DNA of 64,000 nucleotides from an uncultured Chloroflexia bacterium (GTDB taxonomy: Bacteria > Chloroflexota > Dehalococcoidia > GIF9 > AB-539-J10): NCBI GenBank assembly GCA_963769975.1, contig CAVYNS010000008.1, positions 31,686 through 95,685 of the forward strand, written 5' to 3'. The translations under genes and the position numbers were made by a program. The notes under the pieces are model-generated. The model made no database searches, was not told the DNA's origin, and was given only the letters and a program-made list of their open reading frames with translations. Numbering within the stretch: the stretch's first letter is position 1; the number at the start of each line of letters is the position of its first letter. Of the stretch, positions 1-10,274 are shown piece after piece.

Positions 1-2
1 AG

Positions 3-2258
3 GTCATTGATGTACTCAGAAAATGGGGGTTCTGGGAAGATGTCAACAGTTGGAAGCCATATGGCAACGTCCAAAATAATAGAGGTATAGTTGGTAATCA
101 ACAGAGTTCCCCCGTTGCTGCACTGGTCGAAAAAATAGTTAATTCAATTGATGCTGTGCTTACCGGGGAGTGTTTCAGGGTAGGTATTGACCCGACGGGT
201 GCGATGGCTCCTAAAACCATGCAAAACGCCATTGGGCAGTTTTTTCAGGTCAAGGATGGTCGTGTTGAGAACTTGGGCCCTTCTCAACGAACAAAGCTAG
301 CTGAAACGATTGTTTTAGTCGCCACAGGAACAAAGGAAAATCCAAACTACGTATTAATCGACCAGGGTGAAGGCCAATGTCCTGATAGATTTGAATCAAC
401 ATTTCTTTCTTTACTTAGAGACAACAAGACACGTATACCTTTTGTACAAGGTAAGTACAATATGGGTGGCACAGGAGTTCTACAATTCTCTGGAAAGCAT
501 AGCTTTCAGCTCATTATATCTAAGCGACAGCCATGGATTAGCCAGACTAGCGCAACGTTGGCTGATAAGTGGGGATTTACATTAACTAGGCGATTGGAGC
601 CAAATGCAGACCAGCCTCAATCCAGCTATGTCTTTCTCGCTCCGAATGGCATGATTCCCTTTTTCGGTGGCGATACTTTGGAATTGCTTCCTGGCAAATA
701 TCCTTATGCTCATCAACAGGCGATGCAAGCTGGGACCTGCATAAAGCTTTGGAATTACAAATTTCCTGGAAGAATTAAGTCTATCGCAACATTGGATCTT
801 AGATGGGCTCTTGAGCGGCATCTTCAAAATCCTGCCATTCCAATTCGCATTTCGGAGCGGAGACAGGGGTACAGAGCTCACTACTATGATACTACAATGT
901 CAGGGATGTTGACAGTTATCGCAGATAATCCAGAGGATATTGAGAACGGATTTGATACTGGGAGTCCGCTTGATGTGCCTGGAGTAGGTCATCTTGAACT
1001 AAGACTAATCGTTTTGAAAGATACCGTCAGTGATGATAAATATACTACGGGAATATTTTTTAATGTCAATGGTCAGATGCATAGCGACCTGGGAAAGGAT
1101 TTCATTTCGAGGAGATCGAACCTGGATTATGTTGCTGACAGCATGATAGTGGTCGTAGATTGTTCAGCCTTACCCACGACCGTGCGCGAAGACTTATTTA
1201 TGGGGTCTAGAGATCGAATGCGCCAATGTGAAGAACGACAGGCTATAGAGTCTGCGATCGGGGAATATCTAAAAGACCACCCTGGATTACGCCAGCTTAA
1301 TGCCTTGCGCAGACAAAATCTTACGGCGGCGGCAATAAGTGATGAACACACATCGGAGATATTTCAAGAACTTGTAAAGGGCGACCCAACCCTTGGCGCA
1401 TTATTTGGGGCTGGGAAAAAACTGAAATTACCTGCCGGAGTAGTTCCGGAGCAGATACCCTATGAGGGATTAAAATTCCCCACATTCTTCAAACTAGTAC
1501 ATGAACCAAAAGAGGGATTAACAAAGCTATGTCCAAGAAATCATACCTGCCGTGTCGAATTTGAAACTGATGCCTCCAACGACTATTTCTCTCGGATTTC
1601 AGAACGCGGTCATTTCACGGTGAAGGGAGTGGTGGCACCTCTCTCGAGCGTTCATTTGTGGAATGGTAAAGCTAATGTTAGGTTCGCACCACCGGTTGGA
1701 GCGAATCCGGGTGATCATTATTCTATCCAGATTGAAGTTTCAGACCCGTCACGTGTAATCCCGTTTCAAGCGCAATTCGTGATGGTGATTGAGGCTGATG
1801 CACCGTCTTATCCACCTGGTGGTACCCCAAAACCAAAGGGATCACAACTGATGGGTATCCCCAATGTGAAAGAGGTACGACGAGATCAATGGGCTAAACA
1901 TGGGTTCGACGAGACTTCTGCCTTAGCAGTCAAGAGAGGAGAAGAAGAACAGTTGGACTTTTTTGTCAATATGGATAACATATACTTAAAGAATGAGATA
2001 GCACGTCGCAAAAGCACCGAAAAAACTCTCATTGAGTACTATTTCAAGTATGGGCTAAGTTTGTTGGCGTTAGGGATACTACACATAAAACGTGAATCCG
2101 CAGAAAAAACGGAGGAAGAAGTAACCGACAAAGAGAGCACTGAGTGGCCGCCTCAAACAGTAAAAGATGCGATAGCTGCGGCCTGCAGAGGGTCAGCTGT
2201 AACAATCATTCCCATTATAATTCAACTCGGCAAAATCTCCGCTAAAGCGGGGATCTAA
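3..2258 (+). CDS. GHKL (MORC/HSP90/MutL-like) ATPase domain protein, 5' end outside the window
   Basis: The frame is open from base 3, upstream of the tracked start at 156. It adds the N-box EKIVNSIDA, followed by G1 DQGEG and G2 GKYNMGGTG. Confidence 0.8.
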   Translation, partial: VIDVLRKWGFWEDVNSWKPYGNVQNNRGIVGNQQSSPVAALVEKIVNSIDAVLTGECFRVGIDPTGAMAPKTMQNAIGQFFQVKDGRVENLGPSQRTKLAETIVLVATGTKENPNYVLIDQGEGQCPDRFESTFLSLLRDNKTRIPFVQGKYNMGGTGVLQFSGKHSFQLIISKRQPWISQTSATLADKWGFTLTRRLEPNADQPQSSYVFLAPNGMIPFFGGDTLELLPGKYPYAHQQAMQAGTCIKLWNYKFPGRIKSIATLDLRWALERHLQNPAIPIRISERRQGYRAHYYDTTMSGMLTVIADNPEDIENGFDTGSPLDVPGVGHLELRLIVLKDTVSDDKYTTGIFFNVNGQMHSDLGKDFISRRSNLDYVADSMIVVVDCSALPTTVREDLFMGSRDRMRQCEERQAIESAIGEYLKDHPGLRQLNALRRQNLTAAAISDEHTSEIFQELVKGDPTLGALFGAGKKLKLPAGVVPEQIPYEGLKFPTFFKLVHEPKEGLTKLCPRNHTCRVEFETDASNDYFSRISERGHFTVKGVVAPLSSVHLWNGKANVRFAPPVGANPGDHYSIQIEVSDPSRVIPFQAQFVMVIEADAPSYPPGGTPKPKGSQLMGIPNVKEVRRDQWAKHGFDETSALAVKRGEEEQLDFFVNMDNIYLKNEIARRKSTEKTLIEYYFKYGLSLLALGILHIKRESAEKTEEEVTDKESTEWPPQTVKDAIAAACRGSAVTIIPIIIQLGKISAKAGI

Positions 2259-2274
2259 AGCTTTTCTCAGTTGA

Positions 2275-3495
2275 TCAGACTATTGGGCGGTGGATCATGA
2301 GAACCTCGTGGCTTGAGAATTGTCTATCATGTAAATAGGCATACCATCTCCGATTTGGCACTATCCTGGTGGCAATATTAGAAGTTTCTGACTCGGTAAT
2401 ATCGATTGGCTCAAATCCTGCCTTGGACATTGTCAGAAGGTATCTTCTTCTAATGGATTCTTCATCTGGAAAAGCCACGAGCTGAACTAAGATAGTCTTA
2501 GGGGTAACCAACTTCCTTAAGTTTAAGAAGGCCTGAAATAAGTTTTGAAAATACTTTTCTTGCCCTATTCTCGAACGAGGTCCCATCGTATAGAACGATG
2601 GTGAATACCCATCTTTCAATGTAGCAAGCCAATAGTGAGCTGAAGTCTCACGCCGTCCAAGTATCTGCCATTTGTTATATAGGACATGGATTTGCGGATA
2701 TGGTGGAGAGGTCAACACCAGAGTTGGCTTTGGGAAGACAGATGATAGGATTTTGTCAACAGCTGAGCCTGCTGCGGATCCGAGATAAAGTTGGCGCATT
2801 GAGGTCACCTTGTTCTTAGGAATATTACTCGATTTTGCCGTTTTCACAAATTCATCAAGCCCATCTATCATCGACGTTACTAATCGACTAAAAGTCGTTT
2901 TTACTTCATCAAGGCCTGGTATCATGTATTTACAATCCAAGGCTAACTGTCCAGTTCTAATGACTACGCATCGAGCAAATCTCTGTTGACGAGGGAACCG
3001 TAAACCTGAAGCTAAATTGCTTGCCCTGGTAAGAAATTCTGCAATATCAGACGGCATGTTTAATAACGGACTTTGCTTTGTAATTATGTTCATTAATGAA
3101 GTTATTCTTTGTGGCTTCAATACATCGTCAACCCATCGTAGAATAGAATCAATGTCATTCGAACTCAAAGGTGTAGTTTTAACTTGAGATGTGAAGTAAG
3201 CTAAGGAATTTAAATCTATTCCGATAGCACGACGCCCCAGTGCTACTGCTTCAACGATTGTAGTTCCTCCGCCGACAAATGGGTCAAGAACACAATCGTA
3301 CGGCTCCGTGAAATTCAGTATAACTTGACGAACGAATTCTGGATTGAATCTAGCTGGATAGCGATAGAAATTGTGAGTTAAACCATGAACCGGCCTGCTC
3401 GAGGCAATAGCCTCTCTCAAGCTATCAGGCATTAGTACCGAACTGATTGTGTGATCACCAGAGTGATTAGCGTATGGCTTTAGTAAATCTTCCAT
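2275..3495 (-). CDS. Site-specific DNA amino-methyltransferase (m4C/m6A, motif I before motif IV)
   Basis: DPFVGGGTT SAM-binding motif I, then TSPPY catalytic motif IV; N-terminal HNFYRYPARF segment. Confidence 0.88.
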   Translation of the reverse strand: MEDLLKPYANHSGDHTISSVLMPDSLREAIASSRPVHGLTHNFYRYPARFNPEFVRQVILNFTEPYDCVLDPFVGGGTTIVEAVALGRRAIGIDLNSLAYFTSQVKTTPLSSNDIDSILRWVDDVLKPQRITSLMNIITKQSPLLNMPSDIAEFLTRASNLASGLRFPRQQRFARCVVIRTGQLALDCKYMIPGLDEVKTTFSRLVTSMIDGLDEFVKTAKSSNIPKNKVTSMRQLYLGSAAGSAVDKILSSVFPKPTLVLTSPPYPQIHVLYNKWQILGRRETSAHYWLATLKDGYSPSFYTMGPRSRIGQEKYFQNLFQAFLNLRKLVTPKTILVQLVAFPDEESIRRRYLLTMSKAGFEPIDITESETSNIATRIVPNRRWYAYLHDRQFSSHEVLMIHRPIV

Positions 3496-3581
3496 ATATC
3501 AACTCTGGCCATATTAATGATGTGACTCGTTATAAGCAGTGCTTCGATACGACTACTTTATCTTTCTCTGGGCGAGGTTCC

Positions 3582-3785
3582 TCAATATTTTCGTTTAGCA
3601 TCCTCAACCGGACGTGGCGTTTTCAGAGTATCTAATTCACTCTTTTTAACCAGGCGTTTACGGTCATCAAGCGGATCGAGGGAGACTTTTAGTAGGCCCT
3701 TGTTGATAAGACGCCGCATTTTTATGTCGCTAATCCCCAGGTATCTGGCAGCTTCTCTTAAATTCAGATATACGTCGGAAGCCAT
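3582..3785 (-). CDS. Small excisionase-like (HTH_17/MerR-type) DNA-binding protein
   Basis: YLNLREAARYLGIS...RRLINKGLL pattern; GGGAG RBS before ATG 3785. Confidence 0.8.
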   Translation of the reverse strand: MASDVYLNLREAARYLGISDIKMRRLINKGLLKVSLDPLDDRKRLVKKSELDTLKTPRPVEDAKRKY

Positions 3786-3808
3786 AAATTGTACTCCCAC
3801 CATGAATA

Positions 3809-3844: not shown

Positions 3845-4046
3845 ATTATATATTGTAAAGTATTGATAGATAATGTAATATAGTATTCCAGTGGGACCTC
3901 GGTCCTCTTGGGTCGTACGCTGGGCGGCTGCACTTTTCTGATCTTTACGCAATCGGACAGACAGGTACGATTTGGTCCTTTAGCGTAGTGTTCAGCGGGA
4001 GAGAGCGAGTGCAGAGCGGCATCGTCATCGTCCGTCCAGTCGTCAA

Positions 4047-4116
4047 GCCGAATTCCAGGGATACCATGCCAATTAGGCCTACTACAGATTAGGTATTATG
4101 TCTATGTCCTCGGAAT
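4047..4116 (+). repeat. ~60-bp imperfect hairpin repeat, copy R1
   Basis: gccgAATTCCAGGGATACCATGCCAATTaggcctactacagATTAGGTATTATGtctatgTCCTCGGAAT; aligns with R2-R5. Confidence 0.8.
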
Positions 4117-4153
4117 ACTAGAACGTGACATTGTGGGTTGTAATGCGCTAGAT

Positions 4154-4218
4154 AAAAAAACCCCCCCTGTCATAAAGGCAACTCGCCTCTATCCCAGAGG
4201 AGGTTTGCTAATAACTAT
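4154..4218 (-). ncRNA. Candidate small RNA (promoter, hairpin, U-tract; no ORF)
   Basis: Lies just downstream of a strong promoter. AAACCTCCTCT can pair with AGGGGGGGTTT, whose G-run is followed by a T7 run. Confidence 0.35.
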
Positions 4219-4222
4219 ATAT

Positions 4223-4251
4223 ATATTATAACAACCAGTTTGATAAGTCAA
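4223..4251 (-). promoter_or_regulatory. sigma70-type promoter
   Basis: TTGACT (4251-4246) and extended -10 TGTTATAAT (TATAAT 4230-4225, or TAATAT at 17-bp spacing). Confidence 0.55.
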
Positions 4252-4275
4252 GCGCCAAAGTATTTGCAGGGATCG

Positions 4276-5025
4276 CTATGATTTTTCACCGATGGCTTGA
4301 ATGATTTCTTTGACGATAGGGTGCTCAGAGTTCAATCCGCAGGCTAGGGTTGGAAACTGTGGATTTTTCGGATTATCGACATAGTATGTCGACAGCATTT
4401 TCCTGTCGATGGCGATTTGAAGAGCCTCTTGTGAGTCAGGTTCATTCCCAAATACTTTCTCCCGCACCATCTTTACAGAGAGAAATCGGTGGCCTGCCTG
4501 AAGGTCTCGAATGCGCCGAATAAAGGGGATCCAGTCATAGGAGATTGATCCCGGTATTGGCTTTGATTCAATTGGAATGGTTTCCACTGATTTTGCCGTA
4601 TTCAGGTTTCTTATTGGTGAAAACTCCACGCTTATTTGGTCCTTCAAGGTTCCGAGAAAAGAATCAATCTCTGCATAGACTGCCTCCCGAGCTTTACTTT
4701 TTTCTGGTTCAGACAATCCTTTCAGGGCTTCATCGAGGCCTGCCGCTGACCGTTGGATGATTGTCGGGCGCAGACTCTCGATGTGACCTCTCGCACCACT
4801 CTGAAACACTTCTTGGACAGTTTGAATAATAGGGCGAATCATATCCTTCGAGGCTACTTCGGTAACCTTTGCGGAGGCTTCGATCCTTGAAATGATGTTG
4901 TTCAATGAGTTGTATAGGTCATTAGTTCTTCGGTAGAAATACAACGAAAGCCATATAGCGACAACACCAAGAACCACTGCAGCGACTGCCAAAATAAAAC
5001 CAACTACTTGGATGGTTGTTTCCAT
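4276..5025 (-). CDS. Hypothetical protein: N-terminal TM helix, coiled coil, C-terminal globular domain
   Basis: AAGGAG RBS before ATG 5025 (METTIQ); hydrophobic VVGFILAVAAVVLGVVAIWLSLYF. The longer tracked start would run through repeat R2. Confidence 0.7.
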   Translation of the reverse strand: METTIQVVGFILAVAAVVLGVVAIWLSLYFYRRTNDLYNSLNNIISRIEASAKVTEVASKDMIRPIIQTVQEVFQSGARGHIESLRPTIIQRSAAGLDEALKGLSEPEKSKAREAVYAEIDSFLGTLKDQISVEFSPIRNLNTAKSVETIPIESKPIPGSISYDWIPFIRRIRDLQAGHRFLSVKMVREKVFGNEPDSQEALQIAIDRKMLSTYYVDNPKNPQFPTLACGLNSEHPIVKEIIQAIGEKS

Positions 5026-5048
5026 AACATCTCCTTCCGGGTCTCCGG

Positions 5049-5107
5049 GAATTCTAGGGACACCATACCAATTAAGCCTATCACGAATTAGGTATTGTAT
5101 GCCCAGA
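5049..5107 (+). repeat. ~60-bp imperfect hairpin repeat, copy R2
   Basis: GAATTCTAGGGACACCATACCAATTaagcctatcacgAATTAGGTATTGTATGCCCAGA. Confidence 0.85.
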
Positions 5108-5188
5108 TTACCAAAGGGTAACAATCACCTGAGAGCTTCTCATATTGTAACATTATGTGAGAACAGCGGTCAACGAAATCGGGCACAT

Positions 5189-5252
5189 GCCGAATTCCAG
5201 GGACACCATACCAACCAGGCCTGCCACAAATCAGGTATTATTGCCCCGAATA
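5189..5252 (+). repeat. ~60-bp imperfect hairpin repeat, copy R3
   Basis: gccGAATTCCAGGGACACCATACCAACcaggcctgccacaAATCAGGTATTATTGCCCCGAATA. Confidence 0.85.
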
Positions 5253-5556
5253 TTATTCTCTAAGTAATGCTTCGTTCACCCGCTCATTTTGGGGTGACTC
5301 TTCAGATTTGCGATTATTGGCTACATCGAGATACGCTAGAGACATTGAAGGGCGGGGGGAGCTACGAGCTCTTCTCCTGACTCCTGACTACTGTTTTCGA
5401 GCTCACACCTCAGCATTCCTCAACTAGCCTGAGGACATCGCACCAGCCTGAGTCAGGAAGTCGTTCATGGGACAGGAAGAAGGCAACCGCTTTTGTGATA
5501 TAATCGCAGCAAGGGCAGACCAAGTAAATGTGGTCAGACTGCCACAGGTTATTTGC

Positions 5557-6078
5557 ATGGTCAATAATAAATCACTTATTCCTGTCGATAGGATTGAGAA
5601 GGCAATTCTGTTAATCCGTGGGCAAAAAGTTATACTCGATGCCGACCTGGCAGCGCTTTATGGAGTTGAGACCAAGATGCTTGTTCGAGCAGTCAAACGG
5701 AATATTAACCGCTTTCCGACTGATTTCATGTTTCAGCTCAGCAAGGAAGAGTTCGATAACTTGAGGTTCCATTTTGGCACCTCAAGTGTCTGGGGTGGGC
5801 GACGCTATCCTCCATATGCCTTCACCGAGCAGGGCGTTGCCATGCTATCCAGCGTACTGCACAGCCAGCGCGCTGTCCAGGTAAATATTGAGATAATGCG
5901 GGCCTTTATCCGCTTGCGGCAGATGCTAGCAAGTCATGTCGAGCTTGCCCGCAAGCTAGACGCTCTTGAGAAGAAGTATGATGCTCAATTTAAACAGGTG
6001 TTTGAAGCTATTCGGCAGCTTATGGCGCCACCGGAACCGAAACGGCGCCCCATAGGATTTCGAAAAGGCGACGAATAA
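5557..6078 (+). CDS. ORF6N-domain DNA-binding protein
   Basis: [21 protein letters not shown]...[17 protein letters not shown]...[16 protein letters not shown] signature. Confidence 0.9.
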
Positions 6079-6203
6079 AAAAGGGAGGCATTACCGCGGG
6101 ATAAAGCCCACGAATTAGCCTCTCATCGTGATTCCAATATTGGAATAGTAGATATTTTCCTTGTTGTCAATCGTGAGCCCTTCCTTCCCGACCACAGTAA
6201 ATT

Positions 6204-6296
6204 CCAATCACTAATCACCAATTACCAATCACCAATCACCAATCACCAATCACTAATTACTGTTCACTGATTACTCACTCCTGTCTACTGTCCACT
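6204..6296. repeat. Heptamer tandem repeat, (CCAATCA)n decaying to CTGTYYA, about 13 units
   Basis: ccaatca ctaatca ccaatta ccaatca x4 ctaatta ctgttca ctgatta ... read directly from the sequence. Confidence 0.9.
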
Positions 6297-6402
6297 AAGC
6301 GACATTTTCCCCTTGTTCTAATAAAGAATTCATGCTAATTTCTGTTTGGAATTCGTGTGCTACCCTGACAAATCAAGTCCCGCGGGTGAGGTTTCTCAAA
6401 AC

Positions 6403-6771
6403 GTGACTGTAAACCAAACACAGATTAAAAGCAAGCGCGGTGGCCAGAAAGGCAACCGGAATGCCCGCAAACATGGCTTCTATTCCGGTACCCTTAGCCC
6501 TGCCGAAACATCCCAATTGTGGAACATTACCAATCTGGAAGGCGTTGACCCTGAAATAGCGTTCATTCGCGTCAAGTTACAGTCTTCTCTTCAGTACGAT
6601 CCTGGTAACCGCCGCGTAATCAGAGAAGCCTCCAGGTTAATCGTAAAATGGTATTCTGGAATTTACCGGTTGGACCCAGCCGACCGCAGCTACCTGAAAA
6701 CTGTTGTCGAGAATCTTTTAGAAATTGCCTCCATGCGTCACTCTGCCAGCCTGCACAGCCCACAAATATAA
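6403..6771 (+). CDS. Hypothetical protein with a GGQxGNxNARKHGFYS motif (as in phage terminase small subunit N-termini)
   Basis: KRGGQKGNRNARKHGFYS; GAGG RBS before GTG 6403. Confidence 0.6.
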   Translation: MTVNQTQIKSKRGGQKGNRNARKHGFYSGTLSPAETSQLWNITNLEGVDPEIAFIRVKLQSSLQYDPGNRRVIREASRLIVKWYSGIYRLDPADRSYLKTVVENLLEIASMRHSASLHSPQI

Positions 6772-7027
6772 GGGGCAAATGCTGACGAAACGAATCGTGT
6801 GTACTTTAACAACTGAATCTTCCGGAGGCAGTCGCCTTACGTACGAAAAAGAACTGTTGAACCCCAGAAAAAATAGCCATTTTTACAAAACGAATCACCC
6901 CGGAAAGGGAAACAACGATGGTCTTGGCGGTCTCACGATTGAAAGCACTTTCCTGGCTATTTCTGTCCCAGCAACGTCCTTTGCTATAATTGATAACACC
7001 GGCGCCCGGCGCAGCTATAAAGTAAAG

Positions 7028-7654
7028 ATGGATAATCGGAACGGCGAGTTGTTAAGGCTAACCCTGAAAGAACGTGATGCCGGGGCTGTGGTGCTGGGGC
7101 GAGCCTTCGCAGAATACGAGTTGCTCCGGTACTATTTCCACGATGAGACGGAGCGGCGGGCAGCAGCCGATACGTTCGCTTTCATTTCACTTGCGCTCTG
7201 TCTGAAATACGGCGAGGTCTATGCGTCTTCAGAGAAGCTGGAGGGCGTGGCAGCCTGGCTGCCGCCGGGGAAGTCACCTTTTGGAGGCTGGCAAATTATA
7301 CGCTCGGTCCCGCTCTCGATTCTTTTCAGATTTGCACGCCAGGGGGCAAGCCGAATGCAGGCTTACGGTAGATTCGTAGATAATCTCCACCGCAGGCTGG
7401 TCCCGTACCCTCACTGGTACCTGCAAATCATCGGAGTAGACCCGGCATACCAGGGACAGGGATTTTCCAGCCGGCTGCTGAGGCCGGTGCTGGAACGTAT
7501 CGACCGCGAGCGGATGCCGTGCTACCTGGAGACGAATGCCGTGAAGAACGTGGCTATCTACCGGCGGTTCGGATTCGAGGTTGTTTCCGAGGATAAGATG
7601 CCAGGAACGGAAGTGATGGTGTTTGCCATGTTGAGAAAAGCCCAAACCCCGTGA
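7028..7654 (+). CDS. GNAT family N-acetyltransferase
   Basis: HWYLQIIGVDPAYQGQGFSSRLL (motif A), CYLET, YRRFGF. Likely start MDNRNG at 7028. Confidence 0.88.
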   Translation: MDNRNGELLRLTLKERDAGAVVLGRAFAEYELLRYYFHDETERRAAADTFAFISLALCLKYGEVYASSEKLEGVAAWLPPGKSPFGGWQIIRSVPLSILFRFARQGASRMQAYGRFVDNLHRRLVPYPHWYLQIIGVDPAYQGQGFSSRLLRPVLERIDRERMPCYLETNAVKNVAIYRRFGFEVVSEDKMPGTEVMVFAMLRKAQTP

Positions 7655-7661
7655 ACCTTCA

Positions 7662-7723
7662 CAATCCCAGCGCCACCACCCCAATCAAACCAGCCACAAA
7701 TCAGGCATTATATCCCCTGAATA
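7662..7723 (+). repeat. ~60-bp imperfect hairpin repeat, copy R4 (degenerate left arm)
   Basis: CAATCCCAGCGCCACCACCCCAATcaaaccagccacaAATCAGGCATTATATCCCCTGAATA; starts 8 bp after the GNAT stop. Confidence 0.8.
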
Positions 7724-7738
7724 CCTATGTAGTCTGCC

Positions 7739-7777
7739 GCCACAAAAACTTGACAGAATTGTGGCATATGTTATGAT
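7739..7777 (+). promoter_or_regulatory. TA operon promoter with operator inverted repeat
   Basis: TTGACA 7750-7755 and extended -10 TGTTATGAT. A GCCACAA/TTGTGGC inverted repeat flanks the -35. Confidence 0.6.
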
Positions 7778-7855
7778 AATAGTGAGAATAGTGGGAAATG
7801 GTGCAAAATGGGTTCAACCCACATTTCAGCTAATTAATGTGTAACGGGAAATAAG

Positions 7856-8155
7856 ATGGCAACTATAATAAAAGACCAGAATCTAGTAAGAGTGGGCAAG
7901 CCTGTCACGCCGGATTCCAGGAAGCGAGTGGTTTTGCCCAAAACAGTAGTGCAAGAAGGTATTACCTATTTCATATATCATAATAGCCTTGGGCAGATAA
8001 TACTGGACCCGCAGGCAAGCATACCTGCTTCTGAGTTATGGGTATTTGAAAATAAAGATATTTTAGCTTCGATCGATAGGGGCATACGTGAGTCACTAGA
8101 TGGGAAAACAATAAATCGTGGCTCATTTGCAAAGCAAGTAAATGACGCACCGTGA
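7856..8155 (+). CDS. Putative antitoxin, AbrB/MazE-like
   Basis: PDSRKRVVL swapped-hairpin-like motif; overlaps the downstream toxin-like gene. Confidence 0.6.
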   Translation: MATIIKDQNLVRVGKPVTPDSRKRVVLPKTVVQEGITYFIYHNSLGQIILDPQASIPASELWVFENKDILASIDRGIRESLDGKTINRGSFAKQVNDAP

Positions 8156-8468
8156 GCTACGTTTTACGCTTGAAGCTGATAAGCAACTAACAATCATTGA
8201 GAATGACTCATCCCTTAAGAGTGTACAGAAGCAAGTAAGGAAAACTCTAGGATATTTAGAAACAAATCTCCGTGCAAAATCCTTACAGACCCACGAGTAT
8301 CAATCACTAACCAGGCGTTATGGCATTAAAGTCTTTGAGGCCTATGTTCAACAGAATGCGCCGGGGGCTTATAGGGTGCTCTGGCATTACGGGCCGGATG
8401 AAACAAGCAAAGACGGAAGGCGAATACCCATTATCACTATCATTGCTATAACACCTCACCCTGATTGA
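8142..8468 (+). CDS. Putative RelE/ParE-superfamily toxin
   Basis: 108 aa; LRFTLEADKQL...AYRVLWHY...IIAITPH is a RelE-like pattern; paired with the upstream small gene. Confidence 0.65.
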   Translation: MTHRELRFTLEADKQLTIIENDSSLKSVQKQVRKTLGYLETNLRAKSLQTHEYQSLTRRYGIKVFEAYVQQNAPGAYRVLWHYGPDETSKDGRRIPIITIIAITPHPD

Positions 8469-8709
8469 CTAATCCCCCCTTGCCCTACCAGCTTTCTTAG
8501 ATACTTCGCTCCGTTGTTTTGCTGTTAGCTTGCTAGCCCTGCCCTTACCGTCTTTTAGACCACCACGGCCACTTGCCAAACCCCAGCTATTTCAGTATCA
8601 TATAATTAACAGCGCTAGGGTGAGTAGCCTTGGCCCGACAGTCTCCCTGGAAAAGAGAGGCTGTTTCTTTTTGAACAAATCCCGCCTCGTAATTATATCT
8701 CTTGGCCAC

Positions 8710-8769
8710 AAATTTCAGGGACACCATACCAATCAAACCTGCCACAAATCAGGCATTATATCCCCGGGG
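8710..8769 (+). repeat. ~60-bp imperfect hairpin repeat, copy R5
   Basis: AAATTTCAGGGACACCATACCAATcaaacctgccacaAATCAGGCATTATATCCCCGGGG. Confidence 0.85.
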
Positions 8770-8791
8770 TGCCTGTCGTTCATTGTCAGTG

Positions 8792-9064
8792 CTACTGGCG
8801 ATAGGTTGTCTCACTCCCGCGTGCAACCTGCAAAATCAATACCAGGTTGTCGCTGTCAGAAGCATCATAAACCACACGGTAATTGCCCACCCTGATGCGA
8901 TAAGCCTTCTCTGTGCCTTTTATCTTCCTGACTTCCCGGGGACGAGGTTCCCCGGCTAAGCTCCTGACAGCATTCCGTAATCGCTCAAAGTCCTGCATCC
9001 GAATTCGGCTCTTGAGCTTCTCCGGGTCGCGGTCGGCAGCCGGTGAAATCTCAAGTCTATACAC
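8792..9064 (-). CDS. relE: RelE/ParE family toxin
   Basis: LAGEPRPREVRKIKG...YRIRVGNYRVVY signature. Confidence 0.85.
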   Translation of the reverse strand: MYRLEISPAADRDPEKLKSRIRMQDFERLRNAVRSLAGEPRPREVRKIKGTEKAYRIRVGNYRVVYDASDSDNLVLILQVARGSETTYRQ

Positions 9065-9332
9065 GCTTTGCCCCGGCGCGCCCTTTCCGACGGCTAATCG
9101 ATTCTTCTAATTCATGCTCTGCTTCGGACCACGGGCGCCCACCCTTCTCTTTCCATTCGGTACGGGCTGAGTCAATTACGGGCAACAATTCGGCATCTTC
9201 ACGGCTCTCCAGCCATTCCCGCACGGCATCTGCTACGATGTTGCTTGCGGTTGTACGCCTTCTGATCGCCTCTATTTTCAGCTGCATGTAGAGGTCTTCA
9301 TCGTGAAATACTAAGGTTACCTTTCTTTTCAT
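9057..9332 (-). CDS. Antitoxin with ribbon-helix-helix-like N-terminus
   Basis: AGGAG RBS before ATG 9332; overlaps relE by 8 bp; KVTL...LYMQLKIEA...IVADAVREWL. Confidence 0.75.
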   Translation of the reverse strand: MKRKVTLVFHDEDLYMQLKIEAIRRRTTASNIVADAVREWLESREDAELLPVIDSARTEWKEKGGRPWSEAEHELEESISRRKGRAGAKRV

Positions 9333-9335
9333 GTT

Positions 9336-9409
9336 ACATACTCCTGCCAATTGTACATACTTCCATCCATACGTACAGACATACTAACAATAACTGCTGG
9401 TAATGTCAA
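9336..9409 (-). promoter_or_regulatory. relBE promoter with CATAC direct repeats
   Basis: TTGACA (9409-9404), 17 bp, TAGTAT (9386-9381). Four CATAC repeats lie between 9336 and 9385. Confidence 0.6.
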
Positions 9410-9425: not shown

Positions 9426-10274
9426 CTAAGGGAGGGTGCGGTAGGTCTGCTGGAGGAGGAGAGCATCCTGCTCCAGATAGGGGGCGCTCTCGCAGATGAT
9501 CACTCCTTTTGCCTTCCGTTCCTTCAGGGCTTTGAGCAGCTCGGCGTATCGAAGGTCCGAGTCCGGGAGCATCAAGTGCTTGATTTCGCCCTTGTGGCCG
9601 TAGGCAATCCCGGAGAGATGGATATGCATGTTATCCAGGCCCCGCCTGCCCAGTTTCTTCCCAACCTGGTTCAAGACAGCGATAAACTCTTGATAGGAGT
9701 TGGCCTTTCCCGTCCGGGCATGCCAGTGAGAAAAATCAATGCAGGGCAGAACTCCTTCTATCTCGCTGCTAAGCTGAAGTAGTTCCTCCAGCGTGCCGAA
9801 TTGAGAAGGCTTTCCGGTGACCTCAGGGGAAATCGTCACCTTGTTTCCCTCTTTCCGCAGAGTATTCACCACCTCTTGCAGATGCCTTTTGACCACGGCG
9901 TAGGTCTCTGCGGGGGTGCTTTTGAGATAGAAGGCGGCATGGAAGGTGATACTTTTGGCGCCGAAAAGAGCGGCGATGCGGGCAGTTTGCAATATCCTTT
10001 CTTTGCTCATGTGTACTTTTTGCGGCTCGACGGAATTCAGGTTTACGAAGTAAGGTCCGTGAGCGGTGAGCACTACCTTCTTTCTGGCTGCGAGTTCTCC
10101 AACTGAGGCAGCAACCTGAGGGCTCATCTTTACCCCCTGGACGAATTCCACCTCCATGCAGCCGAGGCCAAGCTCGGCAATACGCTCAATGCCGGCCTCG
10201 GTGGAACGGGATTGAGCGCTGAGAGGAACACCACCTGTTCCGAAAAGGAGCCCGCCTGCTTTGTTTGGATTCAT
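9426..10274 (-). CDS. nfo: Endonuclease IV-like AP endonuclease (TIM barrel)
   Basis: HGPYFVNLNS, FHAAFY, PEVTGKPSQFG, CIDFSHWHAR, HIHLSG, ICES metal-ligand motifs. Confidence 0.85.
   Translation of the reverse strand: MNPNKAGGLLFGTGGVPLSAQSRSTEAGIERIAELGLGCMEVEFVQGVKMSPQVAASVGELAARKKVVLTAHGPYFVNLNSVEPQKVHMSKERILQTARIAALFGAKSITFHAAFYLKSTPAETYAVVKRHLQEVVNTLRKEGNKVTISPEVTGKPSQFGTLEELLQLSSEIEGVLPCIDFSHWHARTGKANSYQEFIAVLNQVGKKLGRRGLDNMHIHLSGIAYGHKGEIKHLMLPDSDLRYAELLKALKERKAKGVIICESAPYLEQDALLLQQTYRTLP

Follow-up and report, generated by a model that had tools for sequence, protein, structure and literature searches.

Results

Five co-oriented repeats separate small gene units

The window analysed here is a 64,000-nucleotide (nt) stretch of DNA from an uncultured Dehalococcoidia bacterium (Chloroflexota), positions C8:31686-95685 of a 1.56 Mb assembly of 10 contigs that is 90% complete (genome G000; C numbers denote its contigs, other G numbers further genomes and L numbers single loci, and coordinates without a contig name are those of the window). 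Its subject is a repeat of about 63 nt that stands in one orientation between small gene units, five times in this window:

4050..4118, plus strand: repeat copy 1, 69 nt, with a 6-nt insertion in its right arm
5049..5111, plus strand: repeat copy 2, from sequence and search
5192..5253, plus strand: repeat copy 3, from sequence and search
7662..7724, plus strand: repeat copy 4, with the most diverged left arm
8710..8772, plus strand: repeat copy 5, the final copy of the window array

The original prediction had placed five same-orientation copies here, and both the window sequence and the search return five, all on the plus strand and at those places. The core coordinates above were read from the sequence, between GAATTC-like and GAATAC-like ends; the search coordinates are 4044-4099, 5043-5098, 5186-5241, 7656-7711 and 8704-8759 (all plus). 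A 17-mer of the left arm, with up to three mismatches allowed, has four matches in the window against 0.11 expected, a number reached in 0 of 100 shuffles; copy 4 is too diverged for this motif. The predicted distances to genes were also correct, copy 2 being 24 nt from the ATG at 5025 of a minus-strand gene, copy 4 beginning 8 nt past the stop codon of a GNAT gene at 7654, and a RelE-like open reading frame (ORF; 8792-9064, minus) ending about 20 nt beyond copy 5. No further copy was found by nhmmer in the remaining window, as had been stated, and two more lie immediately upstream of it on the same contig (C8:29105 and C8:31497), with about 32-36 others elsewhere in the genome. The genes and blocks between and beside the copies are as follows:

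4276..5025, minus strand: cargo of unit 1, a gene for a 249-aa hypothetical protein with a hydrophobic N-terminus, directed opposite to the repeats
5112..5191, no strand: 80 nt without an ORF between copies 2 and 3 (from the sequence), the predicted empty unit of about 80 bp
5467..6078, plus strand: ORF6N-domain gene (domain match)
6297..6937, plus strand: separate homology block with a 141-aa ORF (6346-6771), about 90% alike in five other loci
6938..7654, plus strand: GNAT acetyltransferase block (domain match and homology)
7856..8468, plus strand: overlapping 99-aa and 108-aa gene pair, toxin-antitoxin-like by its layout only
8792..9350, minus strand: RelE-like pair, a weak match (TIGR02385, E 0.0082)

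The sole family match of the 249-aa protein is to ABC_membrane_3 (E 0.0078, below the cut-off), and a promoter-like stretch on the minus strand (5173-5144, a consensus match only) aims at its gene. The 99-aa/108-aa pair has no family match and is preceded by a strong promoter-like site at 7750-7777; the RelE-like pair sits between copy 5 and a conserved nfo-like gene (9426-10274). Homology to the GNAT block stops at 7723 in three loci (L082, L030 and L189), one base before the end of copy 4 (7724). The ORF6N block (5374-6133) is found again at 95.5% in L073 and is missing (~5394-6267) in L118. A tandem run of heptamers (CCAATCA-like units, 6204-6266) was seen between the ORF6N gene and the next block.

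The repeats form a polar, clustered family

The family is not limited to this locus. Iterated nhmmer over the genome contigs, with reverse-strand shadows removed, gave 39 copies at E≤1e-6 and 43 at E≤0.01, with 20 copies on C2, 13 on C3, 6 on C8 and none on the other seven contigs. They fall into five clusters and four lone copies (C3:127k, 473k, 654k and 715k):

C2:193.7-230.6 kb, all minus strand: 22 copies
C2:266-268 kb, plus strand: 3 copies
C3:3.5-10.2 kb, minus strand: 6 copies
C3:530-540 kb, plus strand: 4 copies
C8:29.1-40.5 kb, plus strand: 7 copies, including the five of the window

A neighbour lies within 6 kb for 34 of the 39 copies (random placement, repeated 1,000 times, gave 9.7 such copies on average and at most 21), and neighbouring pairs are co-oriented without exception (28/28; 34/34 at the looser threshold). 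Degenerate and half copies also occur. A tRNA gene (L005:10712-10795, on C3) was seen about 500 nt past the final copy of the C3:3.5-10.2 kb array. A replication-strand bias was considered and dropped, as the 20-kb GC skew is too noisy and the repeat orientations alternate along C3.

Polarity extends to other genomes. A search of 185,579 species genomes for an exact 22-nt pattern returned at least 116 stretches, and the 80 of them that were listed hold 213 copies. Among these 80, 74 are titled Dehalococcoidia, Dehalococcoidales or Chloroflexota metagenome-assembled genomes (MAGs) and six, short contigs for the most part, are assigned to bins of other phyla; all 135 neighbouring pairs are co-oriented, at a median spacing of 1,045 bp (quartiles 739 and 1,660). 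A covariance model of the repeat has matches in 24/24 congeneric species genomes and in 0/16 genomes from four other families of the same order. Within the genus, 48 of 52 genomes carry the repeat (E≤1e-5), and copy numbers range from 0 to 65 per genome. The 22-nt pattern has no match in viral contigs, and our literature search found no description of such arrays in Dehalococcoidia.

Gene layout was surveyed around 281 copies on the basis of stop-to-stop ORFs no shorter than 80 aa, a set that surely includes spurious ones. The neighbouring gene on the 5' side runs in the repeat direction in 169 cases and opposite in 93, that on the 3' side in 142 and 111, respectively; 19 repeats have their midpoint within an ORF of 120 aa or more. 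Where the 5' gene has the same direction, the repeat begins a median of 38 nt past its stop codon (quartiles 4 and 104, n=169). Because the repeats never flip while the genes do, polarity appears to be set at the level of DNA and not of the transcript.

The arrays have a preferred place. The largest array of the source genome is located between argG and argH, and in G004 and G020 the largest array likewise ends some 1.1 kb away from argG. Of 27 argG loci in the genus, 24 have a repeat within 1.5 kb downstream, 20 of these within 200 nt (loci with at least 300 nt of flank were counted; two paralogues at 46-47% and one flankless locus were left out). All 38 copies downstream of argG, from 24 species, point against it, and none lies upstream. 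The cargo had been described as accessory. It includes toxin-antitoxin-like and restriction-modification units but is not accessory throughout, as a MutS2-like 795-aa gene, a dtd-like gene (both names read from N-termini only) and the argG end are flanked as well.

The site is an asymmetric imperfect palindrome

The consensus of 38 copies is GAATTCCAGGGACACCATACCAATYAGGCCTACTACAAATYAGGTATTATGTCCCCAGAATAC. The site, of about 63 nt, consists of two unlike arms of 19-21 nt, inverted around a centre of 20-25 nt; the inverted repeat that the arms form is imperfect, its mismatches being fixed, and this makes the site asymmetric. Copies are mostly 65-90% alike. The imperfect palindrome that had been proposed is real in the consensus, where 81% of cells pair, compared with 26-43% for a slid partner. 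The attC sites of integrons carry the cores R'' and R' (RYYYAAC ... GTTRRRY). As foreseen, the present sites are not canonical attC: the consensus, from 38 copies of the source genome and from 150 copies of other genomes alike, begins GAATTCC and ends CAGAATAC, and its GAATTC...GAATAC ends hold no AAC/GTT pair. In some copies of G004 (L156, L012-L013), the central 20 nt are replaced by a perfect small hairpin, CCTTCAC...GTGAAGG, with both arms kept; the centre therefore tolerates replacement, like the variable part of attC. At seven loci downstream of a 215-aa gene (L148, L149, L152, L159, L161, L163 and L171), a stretch of about 30 nt resembling the right half of the repeat was seen directly before a full copy, head to tail and without a spacer.

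Units recur beside other neighbours, and synteny breaks at single copies

The original prediction held that the sites delimit modular gene units, and such units do recur in other species beside other neighbours. The argG arrays of G000, G004 and G020 have about a dozen orthologous units in common (66-93% amino-acid identity), in different order and interleaved with species-specific units. The toxin-antitoxin-like unit of the window is found whole, from the middle of copy 4 to the end of copy 5, in two other contexts, in each between repeats and with other neighbours (7681-8765 at 89.7% in L048; 7696-8730 at 87.9% in the argG array of G004). The 215-aa gene (C2:212657-213304) is present in 28 of the 52 genus genomes. 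At 26 of its loci, a repeat lies within 300 nt upstream in 19 and within 150 nt downstream in 19; its neighbours belong to eight named families upstream and seven downstream, plus singletons, and its 5' leader (CTTGCAA...) starts 2-3 nt past GAATACC regardless of the upstream gene. In a repeat-poor congener (G006) no repeat family was found near this gene, and a relic-like stretch was noted by eye. Comparison of L143, L147 and L159, also by eye, gave a hint that the left arm goes with the upstream gene.

Synteny breaks at the sites as well, as seen at two of the lone copies. At C3:473k, synteny with five congeners ends at query positions 3144-3226, the repeat lies at 3221-3304, and nothing is common beyond it; at C3:715k, the sequences on either side of the repeat are found on separate contigs in G004 and G060. 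Left of the nfo-like gene, the locus varies by species and is empty or holds one repeat or arrays. In addition, two arrays of the source genome share a duplicated unit of 613 nt (C8:28623-29234 and C2:225535-224925, 91% identity) that holds an 81-aa coiled-coil-like ORF and a variant repeat.

The read-level comparison used Logan contigs, and at that level neither circles nor population variants appeared. Window positions 1-3736 are uncovered in those of runs X5 and X6, and contigs of runs X5 and X3 skip the ORF6N gene, with joints 5390>6281 and 5394>6277. Three further joints (4096>5192, 4102>5190 and 5234>4107) have sides 21-36 nt inside repeats; they are most likely cross-mapping from other copies and are evidence neither way.

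No integron integrase is found in the genus

Enzyme profiles (PF00589, TIGR02249 and PF01797) were run on the source genome. The expected lack of an integron integrase was confirmed, as TIGR02249 passes its 265-bit cut-off in 0/52 genus genomes; its best score is 44 bits in the source genome and 94 bits across the genus, over the C-terminal part. The protein with the best match (314-320 aa; 24/52 genomes) is Xer-like, scoring 260 bits for XerD, 257 for XerC and 233 for XerA (cut-off 220). Its gene adjoins a core 312-aa Xer-like gene that is present in 18/18 good genomes, repeat-free ones included, and no repeat flanks it at four loci. Genomes with the 314-aa gene hold at least nine copies of the repeat, G009 and G051 excepted. 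It is no more than a lead, because the repeat-poor genomes are also the most distant ones (84-91% core-protein identity).

The source genome has one REP-associated tyrosine transposase (RAYT; REP, repetitive extragenic palindrome), at C2:264365-264832 (L004:4366-4833; NF047646, 111 bits, cut-off 80). It lies 1.3 kb from a three-copy array of the present repeat and is flanked on both sides by a different element, a REP with GTAG and a GC-rich hairpin in about 10-16 dispersed copies. RAYTs above the cut-off occur in 8 of the 52 genus genomes, and 14 reach E≤1e-10. The genes at array ends are methylases, restriction-enzyme-like genes, MFS transporters, an RNase T-like exonuclease, and argG or argH. 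Among 834 ORFs near repeats, whose commonest families were read by their first residues, no recombinase was recognized.

Discussion

A polar, asymmetric repeat, restricted to one genus, delimits gene modules that are reshuffled between species, and synteny breaks at its copies. We consider it about an even chance (roughly 0.5) that these repeats belong to an integron-like cassette system as polar recombination sites on which an enzyme acts. They would then be recombination points delimiting modules of one or a few genes; a module would be excised as a circle through recombination between two neighbouring direct sites, and the circle would be reinserted when its single site recombines with a chromosomal site. 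Such a cycle would leave only co-oriented sites and would explain the gain, loss and reordering of units. The arrays would occupy fixed platforms in the chromosome, the largest of them adjoining argG at its 3' end, and would in effect amount to a sedentary, integron-like array of cassettes that has a site type of its own and lacks the integron integrase. Because no recombinase is tied to the sites, we infer from comparative anatomy that they are recombination sites and that exchange at them is site-specific and enzyme-driven. More tentatively, the arrays may represent a second, independent invention of integron-type gene capture by a dedicated recombinase, neither IntI nor RAYT, that would move single-gene circles at 63-nt asymmetric sites, the argG-side cassette platform and its satellite arrays being upheld throughout the genus.

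Several observations weigh against an enzyme-driven cassette system. The original prediction assumed a tyrosine recombinase or a HUH/RAYT-type Y1 transposase encoded outside the window, and no recombinase is linked to the sites: no recombinase is among the genes at array ends, and the 314-aa Xer-like gene is absent in G000, G020, G003 and G024, each with 23-38 copies. The RAYT/Y1 candidate is improbable, having its own, different GTAG-type REP and occurring in 8/52 genomes against 48/52 for the repeat. The predicted hairpin gained no support from covariation beyond sequence conservation. With a hand-drawn structure of 18 pairs, shuffles equalled the observed pairing of the 38 copies in 33/500 cases and their covariation in 59/500; in the 150 copies of other genomes the paired cells amount to 90.3%, and shuffles matched the pairing in 166/500 and the covariation in 271/500. 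RNAalifold retains only four central pairs, and, as single-stranded DNA, window copies (three copies, both strands) show no better folding than shuffled sequence does (z = -1.43, -0.88, +0.38, +0.44, -0.79 and +0.48). Since neither pairing and covariation nor the folds exceed shuffles, we regard the palindrome as a conserved sequence feature; a folded single strand at the repeat is possible and unsupported.

The boundaries of variable DNA add further points of this kind. The 613-nt duplication runs about 75 nt past the repeat and has a 5' edge without one; no repeat stands where the variable region of the window has its left edge (C8:26195); and the ORF6N indel (5374-6267) has no 63-nt repeat at its edges. 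In the sole comparison of a filled with an empty locus, a segment of about 275 nt is replaced, into the last codons of the flanking gene, which speaks against a clean cassette model. Mapping of a crossover point gave none: Mantel-type correlations between repeat segments and gene distance are equally positive for upstream and downstream repeats and are for this reason confounded by descent. Finally, conserved genes also have copies at their flanks.

A serious alternative, though on the whole a doubtful one, is that the repeat is an intergenic element like a REP or a miniature inverted-repeat transposable element (MITE), with some other primary role or none, whose copies serve as substrates of RecA-dependent homologous recombination; circles and DNA of relatives would recombine at any copy and so shuffle the genes in between. 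That no dedicated enzyme was found, that conservation is high without covariation, that copies stand beside conserved genes and as singles, that some module boundaries are off the repeat, and that degenerate and half copies exist would all fit, and a one-site circle inserted by homologous recombination likewise yields direct repeats. However, copies of 63 nt that are mostly 65-90% alike are poor substrates for homologous recombination, and a self-spreading element would not be expected to be co-oriented in 135/135 and 28/28 pairs whatever the direction of the genes. Moreover, the flanks of 38 aligned copies show no target-site duplication, the filled locus differs from the empty one by replacement and not by a clean insertion, and the sole RAYT serves another REP.

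It is unlikely that the repeat is instead a binding site for an architectural or regulatory protein, such as a polar barrier, a nucleoid protein or a silencing factor, with no direct role in recombination, the breaks found at it then reflecting nothing more than that it marks variable DNA. Arms and centre conserved across more than 50 species without compensatory changes, restriction to one genus and a layout that is always intergenic are what such a site would show, but it does not account for units that keep a repeat on each side among new neighbours, for synteny that stops within a few bases of single copies, or for the spacing of one repeat per gene.

A role at the RNA level, as terminator, 3'-end stabilizer or small RNA, would suit the median of 38 nt between same-direction stop codons and repeat starts. 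We judge it very unlikely, as the repeats never flip, although 93 of the 262 genes to their 5' side run in the opposite direction; in addition, no promoter-like or terminator-like match lies inside the repeats, Rfam has no match to them, and RNAalifold's four pairs come without covariation. Least probable of all, and barely credible, are ordinary integron arrays without an integrase (attC-site clusters without an integron integrase, CALINs) with diverged attC sites: the co-oriented arrays, the imperfect palindromes after ORFs and the toxin-antitoxin and restriction-modification cargo agree with them, but no IntI passes the cut-off in 52 genomes, the best match scoring as XerD, XerC and XerA, the consensus ends lack the AAC/GTT triplets, and the family is limited to one genus. 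CALINs are common, and half of them are in genomes without IntI, as a passage of Cury 2016 (PMC4889954) has it.

The likeness to sedentary integrons and CALINs is nevertheless extensive. Both have co-oriented, imperfectly palindromic sites of about 60 nt after single, mostly promoterless genes, in long arrays at a fixed chromosomal place, with ORF-less units, toxin-antitoxin-like and restriction-modification cargo, units reordered between relatives, and a site sequence that is uniform within a taxon. In contrast to integrons, which are defined by IntI and attC, the present arrays have no IntI (52 genomes) and no AAC/GTT core at the site ends; they end without attI or integrase, flank housekeeping-type genes and belong to a Dehalococcoidia host.

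REPs are palindromes of 20-40 nt with a conserved 5' tetranucleotide of the GTAG type, dispersed in the genome. Like REPs, their mosaic composites (BIMEs) and RAYTs, the present repeat is a genus- or species-specific, intergenic imperfect palindrome in tens of copies, often just after genes, and a true RAYT is present in the source genome; unlike them, it is longer (63 nt), lacks GTAG, is clustered (34/39) and is strictly co-oriented. With MITEs it has imperfect inverted arms in common, but there is no duplication and no neighbour in opposite orientation. The Xer-dependent pdif sites of Acinetobacter plasmids are 28 bp long and alternate in orientation. They resemble the present case in their discrete modules, toxin-antitoxin pairs among them, in short sites, mobile contexts and the lack of a dedicated recombinase gene nearby, whereas the sites here are 63 nt long, all direct and never alternating; a crude scan with dif motifs gave no useful dif-like match. 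Correia/NEMIS elements of Neisseria occur in both orientations, with target duplications and spread genome-wide, none of which is seen here, although they and the minimal mobile elements of Neisseria are similar in that small inverted-repeat elements border variable blocks between conserved flanks.

To our knowledge, no well-understood system other than integrons keeps single promoterless genes in store and reshuffles them at short folded sites. The arrays described here present an integron-like architecture in a small-genome, uncultured genus of Dehalococcoidia, with a different site and no IntI, and resemble integrons in their fixed platforms, in the strict polarity of the arrays, in having one gene per site and in the exchange of units between species. 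If an enzyme drives them, they would constitute a new recombination system with a new class of site for genome engineering, and searches for integrons would be overlooking an entire kind of cassette reservoir; if homologous recombination does, an accessory genome could be given a modular, shuffling organization by a short repeat alone. In both cases, variable genes in these MAGs can be delimited directly with the repeat model.

Additional elements of the source genome

Window positions 3-3803, between the repeat at C8:31497 and copy 1, look like a restriction-modification module, with a 751-aa ORF without a family, an N6_N4 DNA methylase gene (2275-3495, minus) and a gene for an HTH_17 protein (3582-3803, minus). 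A 553-aa ORF at C3:158245-159906, large-serine-recombinase-like by its N-terminus, adjoins a 235-aa ORF that is tyrosine-recombinase-like and contains a zinc-ribbon insert; the region C3:153000-160000 (L187) probably represents an integrated element that has nothing to do with the arrays. Another family of short intergenic repeats, of the GTCATTGCGAG...GCAATCTC type, is scattered over the genome, with members at C8:26290-26330 and C8:29250-29340 and at several sites on C1-C3.

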